NCBI GenBank assembly: GCA_964363455.1 | Contig: CAYIIM010000001.1 | Span: forward strand, 1-42,265 | DNA from: an uncultured Candidatus Saccharibacteria bacterium | GTDB taxonomy: Bacteria; Patescibacteriota; Minisyncoccia; UBA6257; 2-01-FULL-56-20 | Direction: 5' to 3' | DNA length: 42,265 bases | In this document: positions 6,088-37,925 of the stretch, one piece after another | Numbering within the stretch: position 1 is the first letter of the stretch | Layout of the letters: each line of letters starts with the position of its first letter | The notes under the pieces: model-generated | Databases searched by the model: none | Told to the model about the DNA's origin: nothing | Seen by the model: only the letters and a program-made list of their open reading frames with translations | Made by a program: the position numbers and the translations under genes

Positions 6088-6165
6088 TTAATTGCCGTCG
6101 TCGTCTTTGCCGGGGAAGTCTTTATCGATGCGTTCGGAGACTTTCATTTTGCGGAAGAGGAAGTT
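6088..6165 (-). pseudogene. Orphan 3' fragment of an mgtC-family gene (last ~25 codons)
   Basis: Encodes NFLFRKMKVSERIDKDFPGKDDDGN*, matching the C-terminus of the intact gene at 7324 (LFLFRKMKVSERIDKDFPGKDDDSS*). 6097-6156 equals 7333-7392 with 1 mismatch. Confidence 0.65.
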
Positions 6166-6216
6166 TTATTTAGCCACCAGGGTCTAGCCAATAGGGTAAA
6201 AAAAGCAAAAATCACC

Positions 6217-6531
6217 TTAACGTCGGTTTCCAGCTTGCTCAACTAAGCCAATCTTTTTGTGAAACACTTGGGCAATTTTATTAAGAGTTACGATAGATAA
6301 GCCATGGGAACCGGATTCGATTCGAGCTATAACGGATTGGGGCATGTCGGCTTTCTCGGCCACTTCTTTTTGAGTCATCTTCCTTTTTTGGCGCAAGGTT
6401 TTGATTTCGTGGGCTAGTTGGAGTCGTCCCATTTCTTCGGAGAATGATTTTCTGAAGCGTTCACTTTTAAGCTTTTTAACGATGATTTTATCGAGAGGAG
6501 TGAAATTGTATTTTTTGGTTTGTTTTTTCAT
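6217..6531 (-). CDS. XRE-family HTH antitoxin (HigA-like)
   Basis: MTQKEVAEKADMPQSVIARIESGSHGLSIVTLNKIAQVF is a classic Cro/C1 HTH. There is a 4-nt ATGA overlap with the upstream toxin gene. Confidence 0.75.
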   Translation of the reverse strand: MKKQTKKYNFTPLDKIIVKKLKSERFRKSFSEEMGRLQLAHEIKTLRQKRKMTQKEVAEKADMPQSVIARIESGSHGLSIVTLNKIAQVFHKKIGLVEQAGNRR

Positions 6532-6836
6532 TTTAGAAAAGTTTGTGTTTTTAGACCTTTATAAATTTTCTCGGCTTTTTCAATGATTCGTTTAGGTGTT
6601 TTCTGGCTTTGCTTTTTGAAGGCGTCTACTATATAGATAGTTCCACCTATGTTGAAAAATATTATTCTATACTGCCGGACAACTATTTCTTTGATTTTAT
6701 CTTTGAGAGTTTTGATTAAGAGTCCTTCGGTGTGACTTTCTTCGAGAGATTTTAGGTGAGCGAGGATTTTGGCAGAATCATCATCTTTTAACCTATCGAG
6801 AAACTTGCGAACATCTTCAAGAATTCTTACGTCCAT
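6528..6836 (-). CDS. RelE/ParE-superfamily toxin (HigB/Gp49-like)
   Basis: 102 aa. YRIIFFNIGGTIYIVDAFKKQSQKTPKRIIEKAEKIY matches the Gp49/HigB C-terminal pattern. Toxin-first gene order. Confidence 0.7.
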   Translation of the reverse strand: MDVRILEDVRKFLDRLKDDDSAKILAHLKSLEESHTEGLLIKTLKDKIKEIVVRQYRIIFFNIGGTIYIVDAFKKQSQKTPKRIIEKAEKIYKGLKTQTFLK

Positions 6837-6985
6837 GAATTTATACGGTATTCAGTTTTTATTGTTTCACTATTAGTATAGCAAAATTGCTATACCTGTC
6901 AAATGTGTGGGCGTGAGTTATGCTGGGCCGATTTGGGCGAAGAGGAGGTGGAGATTCTATATTAAGCACTAGCCACTAGGTTTTT

Positions 6986-7303
6986 TTATTCAAAAAAACT
7001 TTTAATTGCGAATATAAGAGCGATTATAACTGGTGAAAGAAAGGCTAATATTATCGTTATTATTTTTTGTTTTTTAGAAACCAGGTATAGCTCTGTTTTT
7101 CTTAAGTATACTCTTGCCCCAAGGTAACTTGCTGCTATCCAAGTCAGTATTATGGCTATTCCAGAAATTACTAGTCGCTCTGGTTGATTACCCAACGCAT
7201 TCATGAAGGTTGAAAATCCTAGGAACACTAGAAGATTAAATCCTATAATCCCCATAATTAGGATATAAACTATCGCGAGTGGCAGGTTTTGTCTTTTGTC
7301 CAT
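6986..7303 (-). CDS. Small membrane protein (3 predicted TM segments)
   Basis: From Met62 of the track ORF: MDKRQNLPLAIVYILIMGIIGFNLLVFLGF... The track's N-terminal extension overlaps mgtC in another frame. Confidence 0.5.
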   Translation of the reverse strand: MDKRQNLPLAIVYILIMGIIGFNLLVFLGFSTFMNALGNQPERLVISGIAIILTWIAASYLGARVYLRKTELYLVSKKQKIITIILAFLSPVIIALIFAIKSFFE

Positions 7304-7323
7304 TATTGGCTGGTAGCTAAATT

Positions 7324-7818
7324 CTAGCTTGAGTCGTCGTCTTTGCCGGGGAAGTCTTTGTCGATGCGTTCGGAGACTTTCATTTTGCGGAACAAGAATA
7401 GGAGACCAGAGATGATGATGGCGGAGACAACTGCAAATTGGACGAGGCCGATGCCGACTAACACACCGATGGCGGAGGTCATCCAAATGTCGGCGGCGGT
7501 GGTAAGCCCATGAACGTGATTCTTGTTTTTAATGATAATGCCGGCGCCTAAGAAACCAATACCAACAACGATGTTGGCGATGATGTTTAGGAATCCAGCG
7601 TTTTGAACGGTGATGGCCTGGGCGAAGTTGGTGACGTCTTTGCCGATTAAAAATGGCAGAGCCAAAGCAATCATTGAGAAGATGGCGGCGCCACCGGCAA
7701 CTAACATAGAAGTGCGGATACCGGCTTCTTTGCCGGCGAATTCGCGTTCAACGCCGATAAGGGCACCGAGGGCAAGGGCGACGATGAGGTTAATAAGCAT
7801 TTGCTCGAAGGTAAGCAT
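7324..7818 (-). CDS. MgtC/SapB family membrane protein
   Basis: LINLIVALALGALIGVEREFAGKEAGIRTSMLVAGGAAIF is the MgtC signature. Start taken at ATG 7818. Confidence 0.8.
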   Translation of the reverse strand: MLTFEQMLINLIVALALGALIGVEREFAGKEAGIRTSMLVAGGAAIFSMIALALPFLIGKDVTNFAQAITVQNAGFLNIIANIVVGIGFLGAGIIIKNKNHVHGLTTAADIWMTSAIGVLVGIGLVQFAVVSAIIISGLLFLFRKMKVSERIDKDFPGKDDDSS

Positions 7819-7876
7819 TTGTGTAATAATTTTACACAATAGGCTACCAGAATACAAATTGTGTACAAATATACAA

Positions 7877-8269
7877 ATGAATCTTGGTAAAGAAGAGGAG
7901 GTAGCATATCCAGAGTTAAGTTATAAGGTTGTAGGTGCGCTTTTTGAAGTTTGGAATAACATAGGGGGTGGTCATAAAGAGAAGTTTTATCAGCGAGCTG
8001 TGGCTCAAGAGTTAAAGACATCAGGAGTTGTTTTTCAGGAACAGCTACCAGCCAAAGTTGAATATAAGGGAAAGTTTATAGGGATTTATTATTTTGATTT
8101 TTTGATTGAAGACAGAGTTGTTTTAGAAATCAAAGTTAGAAATTACTTTTCCAAAAAAGACATCGAACAAATTTACTCTTACTTAAAAGCGAAAAATCTA
8201 AAATTAGGTATAATAGCTCATTTTACGAAGACCGGAGTTAAGTTTAAGAGGGTTTTGAATTTGAGGTAA
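7877..8269 (+). CDS. GxxExxY protein (PD-(D/E)XK-like)
   Basis: ELSYKVVGALFEVWNNIGGGHKEKFYQRAVAQEL...FDFLIEDRVVLEIKV...LGIIAHF. Start at ATG 7877; the track's upstream extension is antisense to mgtC. Confidence 0.8.
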   Translation: MNLGKEEEVAYPELSYKVVGALFEVWNNIGGGHKEKFYQRAVAQELKTSGVVFQEQLPAKVEYKGKFIGIYYFDFLIEDRVVLEIKVRNYFSKKDIEQIYSYLKAKNLKLGIIAHFTKTGVKFKRVLNLR

Positions 8270-8311
8270 TTATTTGTATATTTGTAGTAATTAGTATTAT
8301 GTAGCCAAACC

Positions 8312-9703
8312 ATGAGGACATTAATTAGTGGAATAGTTTCGAAGGAGGGTGAGGAAGTTGAGCTCTATGGGTGGGTGCATTCGAGGCGGGATCATGGGAA
8401 GCTCGTGTTTATTGATTTAAGGGATAGGACCGGATTGGTGCAGGTGGTTTTATCCCCGACGCCCAAAGAAGGGTCGGGGCAGGCGGGCCTGGATCAAGCG
8501 AATGATTTGCGGATTGAGTATGTGATTAAGCTGACCGGTAAGGTGGCGAAGCGGCCTGAGAAGTTGGTAAATGAAAAAATTGCGACGGGAGCGTATGAAA
8601 TTCAAGCGACGGGTTTGGAAATTTTGAGCGCATCAAAAGAGTTGCCGATGCCACTGGATACCGATGGACGGGAGATTGGCGAGGATGTGCGGATGAAATA
8701 TCGGTATCTCGACTTAAGACGTGAACGAATGACTAAGAACTTGATAACGAGGCACAAGATTACAAAATACATTAGAGATTTTCTTTCAGAGCGAGATTTT
8801 ATTGAAGTCGAGACGCCGATTCTTACAAAATCTACACCAGAAGGTGCAAGAGATTATTTAGTACCAGCGCGACTTCAGAAAGGGAGTTTTTATGCCTTGC
8901 CGCAATCGCCTCAGCAGTACAAGCAGCTTTTGATGGTGGCGGGTTTGGAAAAATACTTTCAGATTGCCAGATGTTTCCGGGATGAGGACACACGAGGGGA
9001 TAGGCAGCCAGAATTTACCCAGTTGGATTTGGAGATGAGTTTTGTGGAACAGGAGGAGGTGATGGCTTTGAACGAAAAGCTTTTGATTGAAATTGTGGGG
9101 AAACTTTATCCGGAGAAAAAAATTCAAGAGATGCCTTTCCCGCGGATTTCTTACAAAGAAGCGATGGAAAAATATCAAACCGACCGACCGGATTTGAGGA
9201 AGGACAAGGAAGACCCGAATTTATTGGCATTTTGTTGGGTAGTGGATTTTCCGTTTTTTGAGAAGACTGAAGATGAAGGTTGGACATTTACGCATAATCC
9301 TTTTTCCGCACCGAAAAAAGAATTTATGGATGATTTAGTGGCTGGGAAAAATATTGGGGAGATAATTGCGAGCCAGTACGACATAGTTTTAAACGGTTGG
9401 GAAATTGGAGGAGGGAGTCTGCGTAATCACAAACCCGAAGCATTGAAGGCGGTTTTTGATATTCTCGGGTACAAGGACACCAGTCAATTTAGTCATATGT
9501 TTGATGCACTTCAGTCCGGTGCGCCACCACACGGTGGAATCGCTTGGGGTTTGGATCGGTTGATTATGATTTTGCAAAATGAGCCGAATATTCGGGAGGT
9601 GATTGCGTTTCCGAAGACGGGAGACGGAAGGGATTTAATGATGGATGCGCCGTCGAGCGTGGATGATAAACAATTGAAGGAGTTGGGGTTGGAGCTGAAA
9701 TAA
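8312..9703 (+). CDS. aspS: Aspartyl-tRNA synthetase, bacterial-type core without the GAD insertion
   Basis: FIDLRDRTGLVQVV, QSPQQYKQLLMVAGLEKYFQIARCFRDEDTRGDRQPEFTQLDLEMSF, GGGSLRNH, PPHGGIAWGLDRL. At 463 aa, DRPDLRKDKEDPNLLAFCWVVDFPFFE joins directly where E. coli has ~130 aa of GAD domain. Confidence 0.9.
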   Translation: MRTLISGIVSKEGEEVELYGWVHSRRDHGKLVFIDLRDRTGLVQVVLSPTPKEGSGQAGLDQANDLRIEYVIKLTGKVAKRPEKLVNEKIATGAYEIQATGLEILSASKELPMPLDTDGREIGEDVRMKYRYLDLRRERMTKNLITRHKITKYIRDFLSERDFIEVETPILTKSTPEGARDYLVPARLQKGSFYALPQSPQQYKQLLMVAGLEKYFQIARCFRDEDTRGDRQPEFTQLDLEMSFVEQEEVMALNEKLLIEIVGKLYPEKKIQEMPFPRISYKEAMEKYQTDRPDLRKDKEDPNLLAFCWVVDFPFFEKTEDEGWTFTHNPFSAPKKEFMDDLVAGKNIGEIIASQYDIVLNGWEIGGGSLRNHKPEALKAVFDILGYKDTSQFSHMFDALQSGAPPHGGIAWGLDRLIMILQNEPNIREVIAFPKTGDGRDLMMDAPSSVDDKQLKELGLELK

Positions 9704-9708
9704 AGACT

Positions 9709-11376
9709 ATGAGAGAGAGTCTCCCATTGCCAGCCGAAGAAAAAGACGGCGAAATGACCACCAAGGAGTCGGCGTTAGACGTCGAAAAAGAGAATCAATC
9801 AAGCCTCGATAAACCAGAAACGAGAAACGACTTTGCTAAGTACTCTGCATGGGCCGAAAAAATAGATGCATTAGTAAAAGTGAAGCGCAAGACCGCATAT
9901 GACAAGCAGGAAGAGAAACTCAAAGAACGAGAGAAAGAAATTATGGCTTTAGGGCCGGCAGTGCTTGAACAGGTTTTGAATTCCGGCAATACAAACCAAA
10001 TATACGCTCTAAACTCAACCCTAGAACTCCTGCGGTTAAATTATGGAACTAAGCGGTTATGCGACTTCGCACAGGAGTTCATTGTTTCTCATCTTAGCCA
10101 GTTTGAGGAAATAATTCGCGATCCCCAAAATCTCAAGCTTATACCCAAGTGTCTCGTAAACGTTAAGCAGGCCATACAATTCTATGATTCGCAAGACGAA
10201 AATCGTGTAAGTGATATTAAGTCTGAAGGAATAGCGATGTTTGAGAGGGTTTTTGCCTCTCTCGAAAGCCGGATGAGAGAGGATGAGGCAGGTGAAATAG
10301 GCCAGGCTTATTCGAAGATGTTTGCTCCGTTAATTGCAGGGGGGAGCCCTGAAGTCGCTGGTCGCGCGCTAAAACTTGTATTAGATTTTTTTGTCTCGGA
10401 AAAACAAGGTTCTCAACAAGCTGCCGATTCTACCATTTCTGAGTTGGTTAATAGTTCTTCGGTTGATGAAGTTGAAAGATATATACACGAAGATAGAAGT
10501 GACGATTCTTTAAACAGCAAAGTTAAATCGGTATTAGTTAAGATAATAGAAGGTTATAGTCTTAATCCAGAAGATCTTGTGAGGACCTGGAATGAAACGA
10601 GCACTGATAGGAAAATCGGCAAGCCCTATTTTGCTTTTGGCGCTTTGTATCGTGATAACTTAAGAAACATCCGGTATCTTGAGCAACATTCTCCTGGATC
10701 CGCAGCTACTCTCAGAGATAATTTTGGTATTAAAAATTTTGGTCGGTACCCAAGCGAAGTTTTGCTTGATCAATACAAAGGAATATCTGATGATCAAACT
10801 CCATATGGAATAGCAATATTTCCCTATTCTGACCACAACGGCGCGTTTATCGACCCAAAAGAGTCTTTTGAAACTTTATCTACTTCTATTCGTGGGCACC
10901 ACCTGCTAAGAGTTTTTGAAGCGGGGGGCAAGATGGAAATAGCTAGACATTTAATTTCTCTGGATAAGAAATACGGCACATTTAATAAAATCTCCTTTGC
11001 GTTTATCGGAGGTCACGCTAATCCAGATGTTATAGTTTTTGGCGATAATAAAGACGATCTTAGCTCGCGTATTTATTCTAAGGATCTATTAGGTAAGGGA
11101 TTACAGCGAACTAGCGGTTTTTTTGTGTCCCGACCAACCATAATAATTTCGGGATGTTCTACTGGAGTAAAAGAAGGTATTGGTCAAAAACTTTCAAAAA
11201 CATTCAGCGCAGAAGTCATAGCGCCTGATGATAAATCTGCTGTTTCATCTATCACTGCCACCTACAAAGATGATCGCCCAACCTTTAGGGTTGGGTATGA
11301 TAATGCAAAGGCCGCAACTTTTGAGTCAGGAGAAAAGAAGAGAACTGGTCTTGGGCGGTTTTTATTTGGAAAATAG
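9709..11376 (+). CDS. Large hypothetical protein with a C-terminal caspase/CHAT-like His-Cys dyad candidate
   Basis: 555 aa. Helical N-terminal two thirds. C-terminal FAFIGGHANPDVIVFGD ... RPTIIISGCSTGVKEG resembles the clan CD H-G / hydrophobic-strand-C arrangement. Confidence 0.55.
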   Translation: MRESLPLPAEEKDGEMTTKESALDVEKENQSSLDKPETRNDFAKYSAWAEKIDALVKVKRKTAYDKQEEKLKEREKEIMALGPAVLEQVLNSGNTNQIYALNSTLELLRLNYGTKRLCDFAQEFIVSHLSQFEEIIRDPQNLKLIPKCLVNVKQAIQFYDSQDENRVSDIKSEGIAMFERVFASLESRMREDEAGEIGQAYSKMFAPLIAGGSPEVAGRALKLVLDFFVSEKQGSQQAADSTISELVNSSSVDEVERYIHEDRSDDSLNSKVKSVLVKIIEGYSLNPEDLVRTWNETSTDRKIGKPYFAFGALYRDNLRNIRYLEQHSPGSAATLRDNFGIKNFGRYPSEVLLDQYKGISDDQTPYGIAIFPYSDHNGAFIDPKESFETLSTSIRGHHLLRVFEAGGKMEIARHLISLDKKYGTFNKISFAFIGGHANPDVIVFGDNKDDLSSRIYSKDLLGKGLQRTSGFFVSRPTIIISGCSTGVKEGIGQKLSKTFSAEVIAPDDKSAVSSITATYKDDRPTFRVGYDNAKAATFESGEKKRTGLGRFLFGK

Positions 11377-20368: not shown

Positions 20369-20396
20369 TTGACACTCCTATTGCTAAAAGTATAAC
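20369..20396 (+). promoter_or_regulatory. Promoter TTGACA-16-TATAAC
   Basis: -35 at 20369-20374, -10 at 20391-20396. Confidence 0.55.
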
Positions 20397-20427
20397 ATAC
20401 TCAAACATAAAGTAGGTGAGTTTTTGG

Positions 20428-20505
20428 GTCTCGTTGGGGAAACCGGGACGAAAAGTACCTATGAATACAAATACTTTTTGTCACAACGAGGCGTCGTTTG
20501 TTTTT
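20428..20505 (+). promoter_or_regulatory. Conserved attenuator/riboswitch-like leader motif, copy 1
   Basis: Core tctcgttggggaaaccgggacgaaaagt matches 22/28 nt of 28522-28549. Long-range helix 20428-20436/20484-20492 followed by a T-run. Alternative local hairpin gtctcg/cgggac. Confidence 0.5.
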
Positions 20506-20509
20506 ATGA

Positions 20510-20564
20510 GGGCTATCCCTTGGGTTTTGAACTTTAAAACCTAGCGGATAGCCCTTTTGAGTTT
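20510..20564 (+). terminator. Second hairpin terminator in the leader of the first fibre gene
   Basis: gggctatcc (20510-20518) pairs with ggatagccc (20546-20554), then ttttgagttt. Confidence 0.5.
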
Positions 20565-28471: not shown

Positions 28472-28499
28472 TTGACAGGGAAACATATATCCGTAAACT
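28472..28499 (+). promoter_or_regulatory. Promoter TTGACA-16-TAAACT
   Basis: -35 at 28472-28477, -10 at 28494-28499. Confidence 0.5.
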
Positions 28500-28520
28500 A
28501 ATCTAGACAAAGGTAAATTC

Positions 28521-28597
28521 TTCTCGCCGGGGAAACCGAGACAGAAATTCCGTAAATAGGGGAAATGCGAAATATAAACCGGCGAGAATTTTTATTG
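28521..28597 (+). promoter_or_regulatory. Conserved attenuator/riboswitch-like leader motif, copy 2
   Basis: Core tctcgccggggaaaccgagacagaaatt. 10-bp helix 28521-28530/28579-28588 directly followed by tttttatt. Alternative local hairpin tctcg/cgaga. Confidence 0.5.
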
Positions 28598-28608
28598 TCA
28601 GTATTTAG

Positions 28609-28651
28609 AACCACGCTCTAGCGCACAGGGAGTTGTGGTTTTTTGTTGTTT
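28609..28651 (+). terminator. Second hairpin terminator in the leader of the Gly/Asn-rich gene
   Basis: aaccac (28609-28614) pairs with gtggtt (28635-28640), followed by ttttttgttgttt. Confidence 0.4.
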
Positions 28652-28791
28652 GAAAAGTTGATTATTGGGTTCTGGATTCAAGAATTTTTTAAAAAAGAAT
28701 TTTTGAATCCGGAACTCTTTGCTTTTAGCGAAGAGGGATGGGGAAAGGTCGAGTAAGAAAAAAATTAAATCTATAGATTTAATACTAAATA

Positions 28792-29652
28792 ATGAAAAAA
28801 ATTTTATTAGTTTCCTCTTTGGTAGCTGTGATGGTCATTGGTGGAGTCTCTCCAGCTTTGGCGACTGGCTTCGGAGAAGGATGGTTTGATGGTTTTGACG
28901 GAGACGAGACGACCGTTAAGAACACTAACGAAGCGTCAGTTTCAAACAGTGTAACAGTTTCAGCTTCAACTGGTGGCAATGATGCCAACGGTGGAGATGG
29001 AAGCAACGGTGGCGATGGTGGCCGAGGCGGCAGAAATGCTGGCAACGGTGGCCAGGGCAGCCGAAACGGCGACGGCGGCAATGGTGGCAACACCGGCGAC
29101 GGCGGCAACGGCGGAGCGGGCGGAGACGGAGGCTGGGGTGGAGAGATCTACACTGGCTCAGCTTCAGCTTGGTCTGAAATTGAAAACACTGTTAACACCA
29201 ACAAAACAAAAGTTGAAGGTTGTGGTTGCGAAGAAGAAGAGAGTTCAGAATATGAACTTCCTTGGTTTTTTGGTCACAACAATGGTGACAAACTCACCAT
29301 CCGAAATCGCAATAGCGCCAGCGTTTCTAATAGCGTTGAAGTTAAAGCGAAGACCGGACACAACGATGCAGATGGCGGCAATGGTTCAAACGGTGGTGAT
29401 GCCGGAAAAGGCGGATCCAACGCGGGTGATGGCGGAGACGCCGGAACCAGCCACAGCGGCCACTTCTGGTGGTTCTTTGGTGGTGAAGACGAAGGCGGTA
29501 ACGGCGGCAATGGTGGCAACACCGGCGACGGCGGCAACGGCGGAGCGGGCGGCGAAGGCGCTCTTGGTGGTATCATCGAGACCGGCGACGCGGATGCTGG
29601 TTCAGTGGTTGTAAATTCGGTCAACAGAAATGTGACCCGAGTTCGAAACTAG
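28792..29652 (+). CDS. Secreted Gly/Asn-rich repeat protein (two ~120-aa units)
   Basis: Signal MKKILLVSSLVAVMVIGGVSPALA. Units NEASVSNSVTVSASTGGNDANGG...GEIYTGSASAWSEIENTVNTNKTKV and NSASVSNSVEVKAKTGHNDADGG...GIIETGDADAGSVVVNSVNRNVTRV. Confidence 0.75.
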   Translation: MKKILLVSSLVAVMVIGGVSPALATGFGEGWFDGFDGDETTVKNTNEASVSNSVTVSASTGGNDANGGDGSNGGDGGRGGRNAGNGGQGSRNGDGGNGGNTGDGGNGGAGGDGGWGGEIYTGSASAWSEIENTVNTNKTKVEGCGCEEEESSEYELPWFFGHNNGDKLTIRNRNSASVSNSVEVKAKTGHNDADGGNGSNGGDAGKGGSNAGDGGDAGTSHSGHFWWFFGGEDEGGNGGNGGNTGDGGNGGAGGEGALGGIIETGDADAGSVVVNSVNRNVTRVRN

Positions 29653-29762
29653 CCTGTCTGGGGCGAGCGAGCTCTTTAAAAAGAGTTCGCTCCCTCGCTA
29701 AAGAGAGAAAACTTTGATCGGTAGTTCTTTTTAGCGAGGGTATCGAAATCCTCGGGTCACAC

Positions 29763-30272
29763 ATGGAGCATACGTTTAAAAAATTACTTTGTTTCAGCTT
29801 AATGGGAGGCTTTGTATTTGCCGGGTCTTTTGGTTTGGCGTTAGCGGATAATGTCTCGATTCAGAATAATGTCAGCGTTTCGGCCGAGACTGGCGGGAAT
29901 ACCGGCGCCGTGACTAATGAAGGCAAGGCGAGTGTGGATATTCGCGTTGAGAGTGAAGTAGATGGAAAAAAACAAGCGCCGGTGATTGTTCACGAAGAGA
30001 CAGTGGGCGGAAAGATTGAAAAAGAGATTGAAGTGGAGTCGGAAGACGGAGTGGTGAAAACCAAAATCAAAACTTCGGCGGAAGCGGAGAGCAATTCTGA
30101 TACGAGCGGGGTTTCGGCGAATGGTGAAGATGGGGAAGATGGCGACGATGGAGTTGAAACTGTGAGCAGTAAAGTGACGGTTTCGAGTAAAAGCACTTTT
30201 CTGGCTTCGGTGGGAGAATTTTTTGCAAACGTTGGAAATAGTATTTGGACGTCGATAAAATCAATTTTTTAA
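29763..30272 (+). CDS. Secreted acidic protein carrying one copy of the N-x-V-S-x-S-A-x-TGGN half-motif
   Basis: Signal-like FSLMGGFVFAGSFGLALA, then DNVSIQNNVSVSAETGGNTGAV. Confidence 0.65.
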   Translation: MEHTFKKLLCFSLMGGFVFAGSFGLALADNVSIQNNVSVSAETGGNTGAVTNEGKASVDIRVESEVDGKKQAPVIVHEETVGGKIEKEIEVESEDGVVKTKIKTSAEAESNSDTSGVSANGEDGEDGDDGVETVSSKVTVSSKSTFLASVGEFFANVGNSIWTSIKSIF

Positions 30273-30276
30273 ACAT

Positions 30277-33066
30277 ATGAAAAATCAAAAAAACATTTTA
30301 AGAATTTTAGCGACGGGGTTTGTGGTTTTAAACCTCGTTTTGTCACCTCTGCCAGTTTTTAATTATCACGCAATTGCGCAGGAGGCGTCGCCGGCTGAGG
30401 AGCAGGTGATTCCGCCAGTGGAAGAGCAAGTAGTACCTCCAGCCGAAGAAATTCCGCCCGCGGATGAAATAACCGAAACCACAAGCCAGGAAACTCCGGC
30501 AGAAGAAAATACCGGGGAGCAGATTTCTAATCCCGAAGAAGAGGCGTTAACCGAAGGAACTCCGGGTCAAGAGGGTGAAAGCGGCGTGGATGGAGAAGAC
30601 GGAATTCCAGATGAAGACGCCGAGCCAGAACTAACTAATGAAGAGGAGGATGTACTCGATAACGCATCATCAACGGATGATGGCAATTCTTCGTCAACTA
30701 ATGAAGGAGTTGGGGTTGGAGAGAGCGGGGAGGATGGTGAAGATGGAGCGAATGGGGATGATGGCGGAAGCAATGGCGGGGGTTTGCCGGCGATAATTGA
30801 TACGGGTGACGCGGCGGCGGCGGCGAACATCTTGAATATGGTGAATTTGAATATCGTTGACTCAGAAGGCTGGGTGAACTTTATGAATCTTTTTGGCGGA
30901 CTTTTGGGTGATGTGGATTTGAGTGATGTCACTTTTCCGGAGAGTGATCGCTGTCAGTCGGATGAATGTGAGGCGGCGCGATTGGAAGGAAGAAGGAATT
31001 TTGAAAATGAAAACGACGGCGAGATTGATAACAATGTGAATGTTGGCGCGGGAACGGGAGGTAATGAAATTACCGGCACGGGCGAGATTTATACTGGCGA
31101 CGCGGCCGCGGCGGCGAACGTGGTGAATGTTTTGAACACCAACATCATCCGTTCGAATTATTTGATTTTAGCTTTGAATAGTTTTGGAAATTTTGATGGG
31201 GATTTGGTTTTGCCCGGCGCTTCGTTTTTTGAGCAGTTGTTTGGCGGCCGAGGCGAACCGAGAAGCGAGCAGACGATTCCGCCTTGTGAGCAAACTCTAG
31301 AAATTGAAAACGACAACCAGGCGGAGGTGAGTAATACTGGTGATACCGTGGCGGAGACGGGAGGTAATGAAGTTGAAGACGGTGACGGGGCGGTGATCGA
31401 AACTGGAAATGCTGACGCGCTTTCTAATACCGCGAACTTAGTGAATTCAAATTATTACAACAGCTCACCGGTTTACATTTTGGTGAGAGTGACGGGGCGA
31501 TGGAATGGAGATGTTTTCAGTGTGCCGCCGGGATTAAAGTGGGAGGAAACCCCGATGGGAATTTTGATCACATCGGACGATGATGCGGACGGCGGAGTTT
31601 TGCCGGATGTAGAACCCGAAGCGGAATTGGTTGAGGGAGAAGTGGAAGAAGTTTCTGGAACGGAGACAAATGAAGAGGGGATTGAGTTTGGTCACGGCGC
31701 ACGGCCTTGTGAATCGTCAGATTTGATTCAAAACACCAACCGAGCGCGAGTGAATAACAATGTTAATGTTTTAGCTTTAACTGGAGAAAATAGAATTAAT
31801 AATGGCGGAGGGAGTTATATCGGAACTGGGAACGCTTTTGCCGCGTCGAATGTGTTTAACGTGGTTAATACAAATATTGTTGGCAGTAACTGGATTTTGG
31901 CTTTAGTAAATATTTTTGGCGACTGGGATGGGAACTTGGCTTTCGGCCGGCCCGATCTCTGGATAGGGACGCGCGCGGCGGCTTCGACTAATCCGTTGGT
32001 CGCGGGCGGATCGGTGACTTATACGATTGACGTGACAAACCATGGGGATGCAACGGCGACCAATGTTCGCGTGCGAAGCGGCAGTGATCCACACGAAAGA
32101 GTGAAGCAAAATCAAACTCCGGATAATTTGTTTGTGACGGCGTTTAGCGGGTTGTTTAGTGATGATTCCGAGGATGATAAAAATGTGGTTTGGGAAATTC
32201 CATCTTTGGCGCCAGGCGAATCTCGAACTTTGTCATACACTTCGCAGGTGACGGACAATCCGCCGGGAGGACTCTCATCTTTTGATACGATTACTACGGT
32301 GGCGAGTACCGAGACGGATGCATCCGAAACTGACAATACTGATAAATTAACGCTGATGCTCCAGGGGGCAACGACTGGAGGAGGAGGGGGGCAGGTTTAT
32401 GTTTCGGGATTTGGCGGGGGGTATGGAAAGCCGAAACTTGAGATTTCTAAAACTTCTAACGCGGGGCCGATTGTGAACCCGAGCTCGACGGTGAGTTATA
32501 AGATTATTGTGGAAAATACTTTTGGTGATTTAGCGCGTGAGGCAGGGGTGGTTGATGAACTTCGTGATCCGAATGGCAATCTAGTCGCCGAAAATATTTG
32601 GGATTTGGGAACGATTTATTCGGGCGAGGAAATAGTGATTGATTATGACACCACGTTTAGCGCGACGGCGCCGTTTGGGACGTATGTGAATGTGGCGAAA
32701 CTTTACGCGAAAAATGATTTTGGTCAGGTTTTGGAAACAGTGATTGCTTCATCGAGTATCGTGATTGGCGTGGGCGTACCAGTTGGGCCAATGGGAACGG
32801 AGTCGGCAAGTGAAGATGGTGATAATGAAAGTGATTCAGATGATTTTTCCCTTTCTTTGTTTAAACCCGAGATTGCGATGGCTTCGCCAGAGCCGTTGCC
32901 GATTTTAGAAAAAGCGGAGTATCAAGATCAAGACAGCGGTTTGGCTTCGATCTTTTCTCTTTTTCCTTGGTTGGGATCGAATTGTTTTTTCTTGTTGATA
33001 TTGGTAATACTTCTAGCGCTTTATGTTTGGTGGAGGACGAGGAGGAAGAAAGATAGTAGTCAGTAG
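30277..33066 (+). CDS. 929-aa surface protein: acidic linker, four TGGN/TGDA/NxVNTN repeat units, DUF11/CARDB-like domains, C-terminal TM anchor
   Basis: NNVNVGAGTGGNEITGTGEIYTGDAAAAANVVNVLNTNIIRSNY. VSNTGDTVAETGGNEVEDGDGAVIETGNADALSNTANLVNSNY. NNNVNVLALTGENRINNGGGSYIGTGNAFAASNVFNVVNTNIVGSNW. GGSVTYTIDVTNHGDATATNVRV. C-terminal FFLLILVILLALYVWWRTRRKK. Confidence 0.8.
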   Translation: MKNQKNILRILATGFVVLNLVLSPLPVFNYHAIAQEASPAEEQVIPPVEEQVVPPAEEIPPADEITETTSQETPAEENTGEQISNPEEEALTEGTPGQEGESGVDGEDGIPDEDAEPELTNEEEDVLDNASSTDDGNSSSTNEGVGVGESGEDGEDGANGDDGGSNGGGLPAIIDTGDAAAAANILNMVNLNIVDSEGWVNFMNLFGGLLGDVDLSDVTFPESDRCQSDECEAARLEGRRNFENENDGEIDNNVNVGAGTGGNEITGTGEIYTGDAAAAANVVNVLNTNIIRSNYLILALNSFGNFDGDLVLPGASFFEQLFGGRGEPRSEQTIPPCEQTLEIENDNQAEVSNTGDTVAETGGNEVEDGDGAVIETGNADALSNTANLVNSNYYNSSPVYILVRVTGRWNGDVFSVPPGLKWEETPMGILITSDDDADGGVLPDVEPEAELVEGEVEEVSGTETNEEGIEFGHGARPCESSDLIQNTNRARVNNNVNVLALTGENRINNGGGSYIGTGNAFAASNVFNVVNTNIVGSNWILALVNIFGDWDGNLAFGRPDLWIGTRAAASTNPLVAGGSVTYTIDVTNHGDATATNVRVRSGSDPHERVKQNQTPDNLFVTAFSGLFSDDSEDDKNVVWEIPSLAPGESRTLSYTSQVTDNPPGGLSSFDTITTVASTETDASETDNTDKLTLMLQGATTGGGGGQVYVSGFGGGYGKPKLEISKTSNAGPIVNPSSTVSYKIIVENTFGDLAREAGVVDELRDPNGNLVAENIWDLGTIYSGEEIVIDYDTTFSATAPFGTYVNVAKLYAKNDFGQVLETVIASSSIVIGVGVPVGPMGTESASEDGDNESDSDDFSLSLFKPEIAMASPEPLPILEKAEYQDQDSGLASIFSLFPWLGSNCFFLLILVILLALYVWWRTRRKKDSSQ

Positions 33067-33153: not shown

Positions 33154-33798
33154 TTACGGTAGATTGATGCGAAATGTAGCATTTAAGGTTTCATCGGCAC
33201 TTTCTGTTAACTTGTAGTTGTAGAAAGGGCTGAACCAAGTAATGCCGAGCCGAAGTTCTATGGGAGTGTCAGGGATTTCACACCCTACCCATGTACCAGC
33301 GCCCTTTTGATTGTCCAATATTGCTCCAAACCGAATGTAATACTCGGTATCAACCATAGCTTCCGCTCGATAGCGCCGGAACCTATCTTTTCCTGCCCAG
33401 CCGTAGACCCGGATTTCCCAGTTGCAATGACTCAGTAGAATCATACCAGAGCCGACAACGGAATGGGGTTCTTGGTCATATCCACCTCCGGCTCCTAGTT
33501 GGAGCCAAGGCAGGAGATTAACAGTTCCTCCGCCGATTGCGGTGGCAGTGCTTTCTTTGACAGCGAAGAAGATGAATCCGCCCAGTCGTGCGTTGTGATC
33601 GTAGTCGATACCGCCTTCGAAAGCGTATTCTGGCTTGAGTTTTTCGTTGTAGGAGCCGACGACTTGGCCGAAGAAGGTCAACTCTTTTTCGTCAGGCACT
33701 TTCTCGGCAGTTACATCTCGCTTGGTGGTTCCGTTGGCTAATCTGGCCATACCAAAAATCATAAGCATGGCGACGAAAAACATTGCGAACTTTCGCAT
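33154..33798 (-). CDS. Secreted beta-rich protein, possibly beta-barrel-like; SD-led cassette
   Basis: Start at ATG 33798, preceded by GAAGGAGG. Signal MRKFAMFFVAMLMIFGMARLANG. Alternating hydrophobic/Gly-rich pattern through to the C-terminus. Confidence 0.55.
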   Translation of the reverse strand: MRKFAMFFVAMLMIFGMARLANGTTKRDVTAEKVPDEKELTFFGQVVGSYNEKLKPEYAFEGGIDYDHNARLGGFIFFAVKESTATAIGGGTVNLLPWLQLGAGGGYDQEPHSVVGSGMILLSHCNWEIRVYGWAGKDRFRRYRAEAMVDTEYYIRFGAILDNQKGAGTWVGCEIPDTPIELRLGITWFSPFYNYKLTESADETLNATFRINLP

Positions 33799-33917
33799 TT
33801 CAGTCCTCCTTCTGAAGTGATTATTGGTCCAAAACGTCTTGAATTGACAAGTGTTATTTCCCACTAACTCTGACCTACTTTTAGCACAGAAAGTCGAGAT
33901 TTGTAAACCCCTAATTA

Positions 33918-37214: not shown

Positions 37215-37925
37215 ATGAAGACAGTTGCTGCTCTGATTGTTGCGATCCTGTTCGTGTTGCCGATGACGGTCAGCGCCCAGGTGTTAGTTTCCACCGAAGT
37301 GGTTAGCAAGTACATCGCTGGGGCTGGGTTTCTTCCGCACGACGGTACTACGACTCAGGTGGACGTGCTTATCACCCTCCCCAAAGGCTTTTTTTTCGGT
37401 CTTTGGTTTTCGAGCGGTTTTGACTTCAAGCCCAACTTTGGGAGGGAAGTCGATTACACGCTGGGTTGGCAGAATGAAGTTGTCGGTACAGGATTGGCGT
37501 TTTACGACCTGAACGACATCTTCGGTACTCAAGGCGCGGATATAGTGTTGCCATACCTTGAGCTGCATCCATCTTTCATGAGAGTGGATCAGACGTTCAC
37601 ACCGTTCGTGCGGGCAGAGTACAATCTTTGCACGCGCAGTATGTCCAAGAATTCTTCGCTCGACCTTTCGGTCGGCATGAAACAATCTTGGCAGATCAGC
37701 GAGCGGTTCTCTGTGAACCAGAGAATTCGGTTGCTGTATGACGATGGGTTGTTCGGCAGCCGGAGTGGATTTATTACCCGATGGGACATCGGAGCTTCTG
37801 CTCAAGTGACCAGGCAGGTCAATCTGAACTTGTCGGTCAAAAATTCGATTCCGTCGAGGTCAATGACTGATCGTCAAAACCTGACCTCGTTCGGAGTTGG
37901 TGTTTCGTCAAGCTTCCCGTGGTAA
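37215..37925 (+). CDS. TorF/Gcw_chp-like putative beta-barrel protein; SD-led cassette
   Basis: AAGGAG 7 nt upstream of the ATG. Signal MKTVAALIVAILFVLPMTVSAQ. VSKYIAGAGF...PKGFFFGLWFSSGF...GREVDYTLGW fits the TorF-family pattern. C-terminal SSSFPW is an aromatic terminus. Confidence 0.55.
   Translation: MKTVAALIVAILFVLPMTVSAQVLVSTEVVSKYIAGAGFLPHDGTTTQVDVLITLPKGFFFGLWFSSGFDFKPNFGREVDYTLGWQNEVVGTGLAFYDLNDIFGTQGADIVLPYLELHPSFMRVDQTFTPFVRAEYNLCTRSMSKNSSLDLSVGMKQSWQISERFSVNQRIRLLYDDGLFGSRSGFITRWDIGASAQVTRQVNLNLSVKNSIPSRSMTDRQNLTSFGVGVSSSFPW

Follow-up and report, generated by a model that had tools for sequence, protein, structure and literature searches.

What kind of surface structure is encoded by three adjacent genes that share one Asn/Gly-rich repeat is the question raised by a stretch of 42,265 nucleotides from an uncultured Candidatus Saccharibacteria bacterium (contig CAYIIM010000001.1 of assembly GCA_964363455.1; hereafter the window). 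The genes, here called A (28792-29652), B (29763-30272) and C (30277-33066), are co-directional on the + strand, with gene C starting 4 nt past the stop of gene B, and the source genome is a 924-kb metagenome-assembled genome (MAG) of the Patescibacteria, 96.6% complete, in which the repeat is confined to this locus. A preliminary description made from the letters alone had proposed three exported proteins with a common repeat, of which one was cell-anchored and two were secreted, forming a curli-type or beta-solenoid amyloid that might be tied to a nearby SipW locus. The export signals, the membrane anchor and the homology of the repeat are borne out by the present analysis, and the gene set recurs, in whole or in part, among the 83 loci compared. 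The repeat is an antiparallel beta-hairpin, and the locus appears to encode an adhesin-like protein whose head is built of a new repeat, together with secreted partners of its own.

The homology was established with profiles drawn from outside the window. A hidden Markov model (HMM) of the unit was built from 1123 units of C-type proteins of other genomes, which avoids circularity (C-type, A-type and B-type denote homologues of C, A and B in other genomes), and was searched against the 200 six-frame open reading frames (ORFs) of at least 50 aa in the window. It matched C with an E-value of 2.1e-101 over four domains, A with 3.8e-22 and B with 9e-6; no other ORF of the window matched, the next best being an ORF at 37215 with E 0.44, which is noise. 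Furthermore, the A family (49 sequences) and the C family (116 sequences) aligned to each other in a profile-profile comparison with 99.4% probability (E 2.5e-21). Given both results, the repeat is real and homologous across A, B and C. Neither Pfam-A nor NCBIfam has a family that matches A, B or the C head (none at E<=0.1 for C residues 160-565); the preliminary description, too, had left the repeat unnamed. Sequence searches of PDB with A and C gave no meaningful match, and the matches returned were rejected as compositional artefacts of Gly linkers or designed armadillo proteins. Literature searches yielded no paper on the hairpin repeat, which looks like an undescribed and unnamed family.

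Each unit consists of two halves, H1 with the consensus N-x-N-x-A-x-V-x-N-x-V-x-V-x-A-x-TGGN and H2 with the consensus G-x-I-x-TGDA-x-A-x-A-N-V-x-N-x-VNTN, which form an antiparallel beta-hairpin of roughly 20+16 residues, and a conserved ladder of small residues and Asn (Ala/Val/Asn) runs along one face of each strand. The AlphaFold2 (AF2) model of C residues 160-565, computed from the 116-sequence alignment, has a mean predicted local distance difference test score (pLDDT) of 84 and a predicted template modelling score (pTM) of 0.80, with the units at ~90-98 and the linkers alone scoring low. The modelled C units have a strand pattern in common, in which a 20-residue H1 leads through the TGGN turn, two short strands and the TGDA turn to an H2 of 11+3 residues and ends in a hydrophobic extension strand of 10 residues. 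An independent check on the fold was provided by mean-field direct coupling analysis (DCA) of 1141 non-identical units (effective number, Meff, 999). The top couplings lie on one antidiagonal at i+j ~64 (13-52, 11-52, 19-46, 17-48, 15-48, 7-55, 24-40 and 28-35), indicating that H1 and H2 pair antiparallel over their full length in a long beta-hairpin with TGGN...TGDA at its tip. Fold comparison of the confident C-head model found no solved analogue and no likeness to curli or any beta-solenoid, and the repeat is not predicted to form a parallel beta-solenoid. The structure prediction called for by the solenoid proposal, once run, spoke against it, with AF2 and DCA both giving antiparallel hairpins.

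Protein C (30277..33066, +), 929 aa long and very acidic (isoelectric point, pI, 4.05), is a surface protein that begins with an ordinary Sec signal peptide, seen by inspection, and is anchored in the membrane at its C-terminus. Residues 35-160 (30379..30756, +) are rich in Glu, Pro and Asp (41 D+E, 12 P, 0 K+R) and are probably disordered. The head behind them holds 3.5 copies of the unit. Unit 0 (residues 166-220; 30772..30936, +) comprises H2 and the extension without the first strand and is modelled at pLDDT 89-97; it is followed by unit 1 (residues 239-327; 30991..31257, +), a full hairpin with the hydrophobic extension strand, by unit 2 (residues 338-429; 31288..31563, +), a full hairpin with the variant extension SSPVYILVRVTGRWNGDVF, and by unit 3 (residues 483-570; 31723..31986, +), again a full hairpin with extension. 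The four units counted earlier in C all carry the extension, SN(W/Y)ILxL...FGxWxGxL, the third in order being the variant, and three of them are full whereas one is a second half only. Such an H2 half-unit starts 220 of the 306 C-type proteins; it lies directly past the signal peptide in locus L001 and a few residues downstream in locus L002, and an acidic/polar linker comes next in both. Between units 0 and 1 stands a CxxxxC motif (RCQSDEC, residues ~226-231) that is nearly invariant in the C family.

Beyond the head, a whole-protein Pfam scan of C reports two stretches of DUF11, a family recently renamed CLIPPER and shown to act in fibrillar adhesins as a stalk domain stabilised by an isopeptide bond (bioRxiv 10.1101/2025.04.25.650565 = PMC12617251). 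CLIPPER domain 1 (PF01345, residues 569-692; 31981..32352, +) scores 50.2 bits (E 3.8e-13) against a cut-off of 24.6 bits. CLIPPER-like domain 2 (residues 721-812; 32437..32712, +) reaches 21 bits (DUF11 E 4.5e-4) when scanned alone and stays below the cut-off, and the earlier mention of DUF11 domains holds firmly for the first of the two. In the second domain, a set of Lys, Asp and Asn residues picked out by eye (LEISK, VVDEL, YVNVA) could form an isopeptide bond. The protein ends with a transmembrane (TM) helix at residues 899-917 (mean Kyte-Doolittle hydropathy 2.52 over 19 aa) and the cytoplasmic tail WWRTRRKKDSSQ, with WWRTRRKK directly past the helix (helix and tail, 32971..33066, +), exactly the kind of anchor and RTRRKK tail that had been described. 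Several C homologues have a PG_binding_1 domain in addition.

The CLIPPER domains and the TM anchor together give C the architecture of a fibrillar adhesin, with CLIPPER above the Pfam cut-off, a signal peptide and a surface anchor. C resembles the CLIPPER fibrillar adhesins (PDB 9IFR) in its signal peptide, distal N-terminal head, CLIPPER stalk, C-terminal anchor and acidic character. However, it differs from them in that its hairpin-repeat head is unannotated and without solved analogue, its stalk has two domains only, its anchor is a TM helix rather than LPXTG or OmpA, and dedicated secreted paralogues, A and B, are encoded in the same operon. No sortase was found in the source genome.

Protein A (28792..29652, +) is a secreted protein of 286 aa made up of two hairpin units only, with long Gly-rich (GGX)n tip loops. 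Its signal peptide spans residues ~1-24 with cleavage at ALA|TG, and the mature protein has a pI of 4.27 and contains 28.6% Gly and 12.2% Asn. A motif scan for TG(G/H/E)N and TG(D/N/S)A recovered the two full units previously noted, the first with TGGN at residue 60 and TGSA at residue 121, the second with TGHN at residue 188 and TGDA at residue 264. Unit 1 (residues 40-143; 28909..29220, +) runs from strand H1 over the TGGN turn and a 50-aa Gly-rich loop to strand H2, and unit 2 (residues 168-286; 29293..29649, +) closes with the basic C-terminus NVTRVRN. The A-type C-terminus is usually R-[VI]-R-R, and ~75% of the A-type proteins end with a basic R-x-R-R. Between the units, the alignment shows a nearly invariant Cys-Gly-Cys (C144 and C146; 29221..29229, +), and CxC or CxxC occurs at this place in 148 of 158 A-type proteins. 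The Cys-Gly-Cys of A and the CxxxxC of C may represent extracellular disulfides or intermolecular cross-links. The units of A are without the hydrophobic covering strand found in all units of C.

The tip loops of A are 50-60 residues long, and (GGX)3-8 runs are present in those of 123 of the 158 A-type proteins. According to the alignment, the Gly runs are variable-length insertions at the hairpin tip, found neither in C nor in short-loop A homologues. The corresponding DNA of gene A has a strict 9-nt period (GGX x3). Over 45 nt, the two loops are 98% identical to each other (29071-29115 versus 29500-29544), suggesting that there has been recent conversion within the gene, that loop length is unstable or that the assembly may be prone to collapse here. 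The likeness to mycobacterial PE_PGRS proteins is compositional only, in the (GGX)n runs, and although the UniRef name of one A homologue starts with 'PE-', A has no PE domain. Neither do the loops correspond to RTX/beta-roll repeats (GGxGxDxUx), since Pfam gave no HemolysinCabind match and the Gly runs of A have a 3-residue period without a hydrophobic position.

In other genomes the two-hairpin module also forms the C-terminus of secreted proteins that have a VWA domain in their N-terminal part and whose genes belong to the same operons. Such genes lie just upstream of B and C homologues at L014 6073-7467, at L076 7828-9129 and in P0091, with VWA matches of E 5e-9 to 7e-17. In L002 (7194-8585), an A-type module with a borderline PA14 match likewise stands upstream of B and C homologues.

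Protein B (29763..30272, +), secreted and 169 aa long with a signal peptide at residues ~1-28 (ALA|DN), starts its mature part with one diverged hairpin (residues ~29-67), which a motif scan showed to hold NNVSVSAETGGN at residues 32-46; an acidic, variable middle and a conserved, aromatic and amphipathic C-terminus follow. B had been taken for the first half of a unit alone. When 46 B sequences taken from related loci were aligned to the unit as a family, however, they covered its two halves (hhalign 95.4%, E 1.7e-8), which makes B a whole unit that has diverged and whose first strand is shorter. The same alignment led us to reject split-unit complementation, in which a first half supplied by B would complete the orphan second half of C. 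The aromatic ending, F..VFS.F, is present in 54 of 66 B-type proteins and is not a TM segment.

Relatives of these proteins are numerous and come mostly from one part of the bacterial tree. Among the matches listed there are at least 126 relatives of A and more than 361 of C; the named ones are almost all hypothetical proteins, a few C homologues being labelled as peptidoglycan-binding or as uncharacterised repeat proteins, and nearly all labelled relatives of A and C are from lineages of the Candidate Phyla Radiation (CPR). A profile of the five window units retrieved 2053 cluster representatives (50% identity, E<=1e-3) among 1.84 billion proteins. Among GTDB species genomes, the repeat was found in at least 247 species, and the best 80 of these 247 are nearly all from Patescibacteria lineages, with a few labelled 'uncultured bacterium'. 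In sampled genomes, it was detected in 35 of 301 from the phylum and in 19 of 251 from the class of the source genome, counts that are probably too low because the five-sequence sampling profile is insensitive. One of nine sampled genomes of the same order had the repeat, and the matches cluster in a few families (six of nine in one, for example). This sampling pattern suggests that the repeat has been inherited patchily or transferred horizontally among Patescibacteria.

The gene order A-(B)-C is recurrent in Patescibacteria loci. Of the 83 loci, 69 have an A-type gene on the strand of C and no more than 3.5 kb upstream of it; for a B-type gene in that position the count is at least 45, and at least 39 loci contain both types. 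In divergent subfamilies, too, a multi-unit protein with a TM anchor is encoded together with a secreted protein. In L095 (G258; 6461-9945) and L098 (G300; 6121-9674), the anchored protein was detected by the H1 half-profile only (pattern 1111) and adjoins a secreted multi-unit partner of 376-413 aa, indicating that the superfamily extends beyond the C-type proteins analysed here.

On this basis, our tentative reading, which we consider plausible without regarding it as settled, is that the three genes form a Patescibacteria-specific surface module in which A and B are held by hairpin-hairpin contacts in a display or adhesin complex. C would be the base, its acidic and disordered N-terminal region preceding a rigid all-beta hairpin head, two CLIPPER stalk domains and the membrane anchor. 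A and B would be retained on the C head by homotypic beta-sheet contacts from hairpin to hairpin; in other genomes, A-type modules would act as carriers of passenger domains such as VWA, and the complex would serve surface display or adhesion. Both the physical association of A and B with C and the adhesive role are inferred. Several observations weigh against this interpretation. The AF2 model of the A monomer is poor (pLDDT 53.5), strands of 22 and 19 residues nevertheless being present in it. B is absent from about half of the 83 loci and cannot therefore be essential. An identity of ~40% over 396 aa of the C head, kept across many, even distant, lineages, is high for the tip of an adhesin and could reflect a housekeeping role in the envelope. 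Finally, DCA of two consecutive units gave mostly same-column couplings (7-7 with z 14.9, 61-61, 31-31 and 9-9) together with ghost intra-unit pairs, which fits in-register stacking of units and homogenisation of the repeats alike.

Cohesin-dockerin pairs, choline-binding repeats and SLH domains are non-covalent modules of surface display, and the present locus is similar to them in function at most: a short C-terminal module occurs on unrelated secreted proteins (VWA) beside an anchored scaffold with a like module, but there is no sequence or fold relationship to the hairpin repeat. A stronger form of the analogy, which we think unlikely, would make the repeat a self-recognising docking module unique to Patescibacteria, in which the open sheet edges and the orphan H2 of the C head take up two-hairpin proteins (A and the VWA or PA14 adhesins) by beta-augmentation, as a cohesin-dockerin-like and possibly extendable attachment surface of an episymbiont. 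Alternatively, A-type proteins and C might each bind a polymer of the wall or host without contacting each other, as functional analogues of choline-binding repeats, SLH and LysM. The C-terminal position of the two-unit module on secreted VWA proteins, the basic R-x-R-R ending of most A-type proteins and the PG_binding_1 domain of several C homologues would all suit such a ligand-binding anchor. Nevertheless, C is already TM-anchored and carries its repeat at the membrane-distal end, the tight linkage of A and C in most loci speaks for a partnership, as does the presence of one locus per genome, and no known carbohydrate-binding family was matched, so that independent binding is in our view improbable.

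A functional amyloid or fibre, with the C head as a cross-beta seed and secreted A hairpins adding by their edges or their faces to an open-ended polymer in the manner of CsgB and CsgA, is the explanation closest to the preliminary description. Curli and the present locus both combine a secreted subunit and a cell-associated protein with a common Asn/Gly-rich repeat and a polar ladder on one strand face. The homologous units in secreted A and anchored C, the conserved small-residue/Asn ladder, the poor model of A as a monomer and its missing covering strand would agree with a polymerising subunit, and the same-column couplings 7-7 and 9-9 would fit in-register stacking of Asn. The ghost intra-unit pairs beside these couplings, however, suggest that they may reflect only homogenisation between repeats. 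Moreover, curli is built from parallel strand-turn-strand rungs, whereas the units here are predicted as antiparallel 20-residue hairpins, and for the C head a defined fold of the monomer is predicted (pTM 0.80). Curlin_rpt (PF07012) had no match in A, B or C at E<=1 or in the whole genome, with the E. coli control positive, and the CsgG channel (PF03783) was not found in the 96.6%-complete genome, with positive controls; together with the missing fold likeness, this tells against the curli-type assignment. That the A module carries VWA passengers elsewhere fits docking better than polymerising, and we consider an amyloid quite unlikely. Even less credence is given to a structural role in which C and A would form a two-dimensional, S-layer-like lattice, which appears very doubtful. 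The unusual conservation of the C head, the single locus per genome and the very acidic character of A, B and C would agree with a lattice, but the repeat is too patchy among the sampled genomes of the phylum and class for a core part of the envelope, even allowing for the insensitive profile, and no S-layer family was matched.

A signal peptidase of the SipW/archaeal type is encoded 4.3 kb upstream of the trio in the window (TIGR02228, E 1e-23), and the locus is reminiscent of TapA-SipW-TasA of Bacillus subtilis in that secreted matrix-like proteins occur with an anchored partner. In contrast to that system, the signal peptides of A, B and C are of the ordinary AxA kind. None of the three proteins has the AFEAH..NVTA tag that the products of the upstream SipW locus have in common, and a Pfam scan gave no match of A, B or C to the TasA/camelysin family Peptidase_M73 (PF12389). 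Of the 83 loci, only 6 have SipW within 10 kb of the trio. Given this count and the missing tag, we rejected the idea that the trio generally belongs to a matrix locus dependent on SipW, and a conserved association of the two is not supported. In L002 (13029-16149), two large genes downstream of the C homologue have faint Peptidase_M73 matches and a SipW-like ORF is found further on; TasA-like and hairpin-repeat loci may thus sometimes adjoin, as in the window, although the signal is faint.

Upstream of gene A, a promoter scan found a near-consensus promoter-like site, TTGACA-16-TAAACT (28472-28499, +), and a terminator scan found a long, AT-rich, terminator-like hairpin with a perfect 20-bp stem (28669-28715, +). 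Within 28472..28715 (+) lies the second copy of a leader RNA whose other copy is at 20369-20564; in the alignment of both copies, the TTGACA box and a TCTCG..GGGGAAACCGrGAC core are common to the two. This repeated promoter and leader element is the sole link seen between the trio and the SipW locus, and the A-B-C operon may be co-regulated with the latter. On the other side of the trio, two exported beta-rich proteins are encoded at 33154-33864 (-) and 37215-37925 (+), both unrelated to the hairpin repeat.

Patescibacteria, most of which have not been cultured, are highly abundant and are believed to live in attachment to other cells, and the composition of their surface is almost unstudied. 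The hairpin repeat represents a large family outside Pfam-A and NCBIfam, with a conserved set of anchored and secreted genes, and at the least it merits a domain-family entry and a structure. If docking of the secreted partners on the anchored head is true, it would constitute a new way in which bacteria build their surface and would give access to the machinery by which CPR bacteria attach to their hosts.

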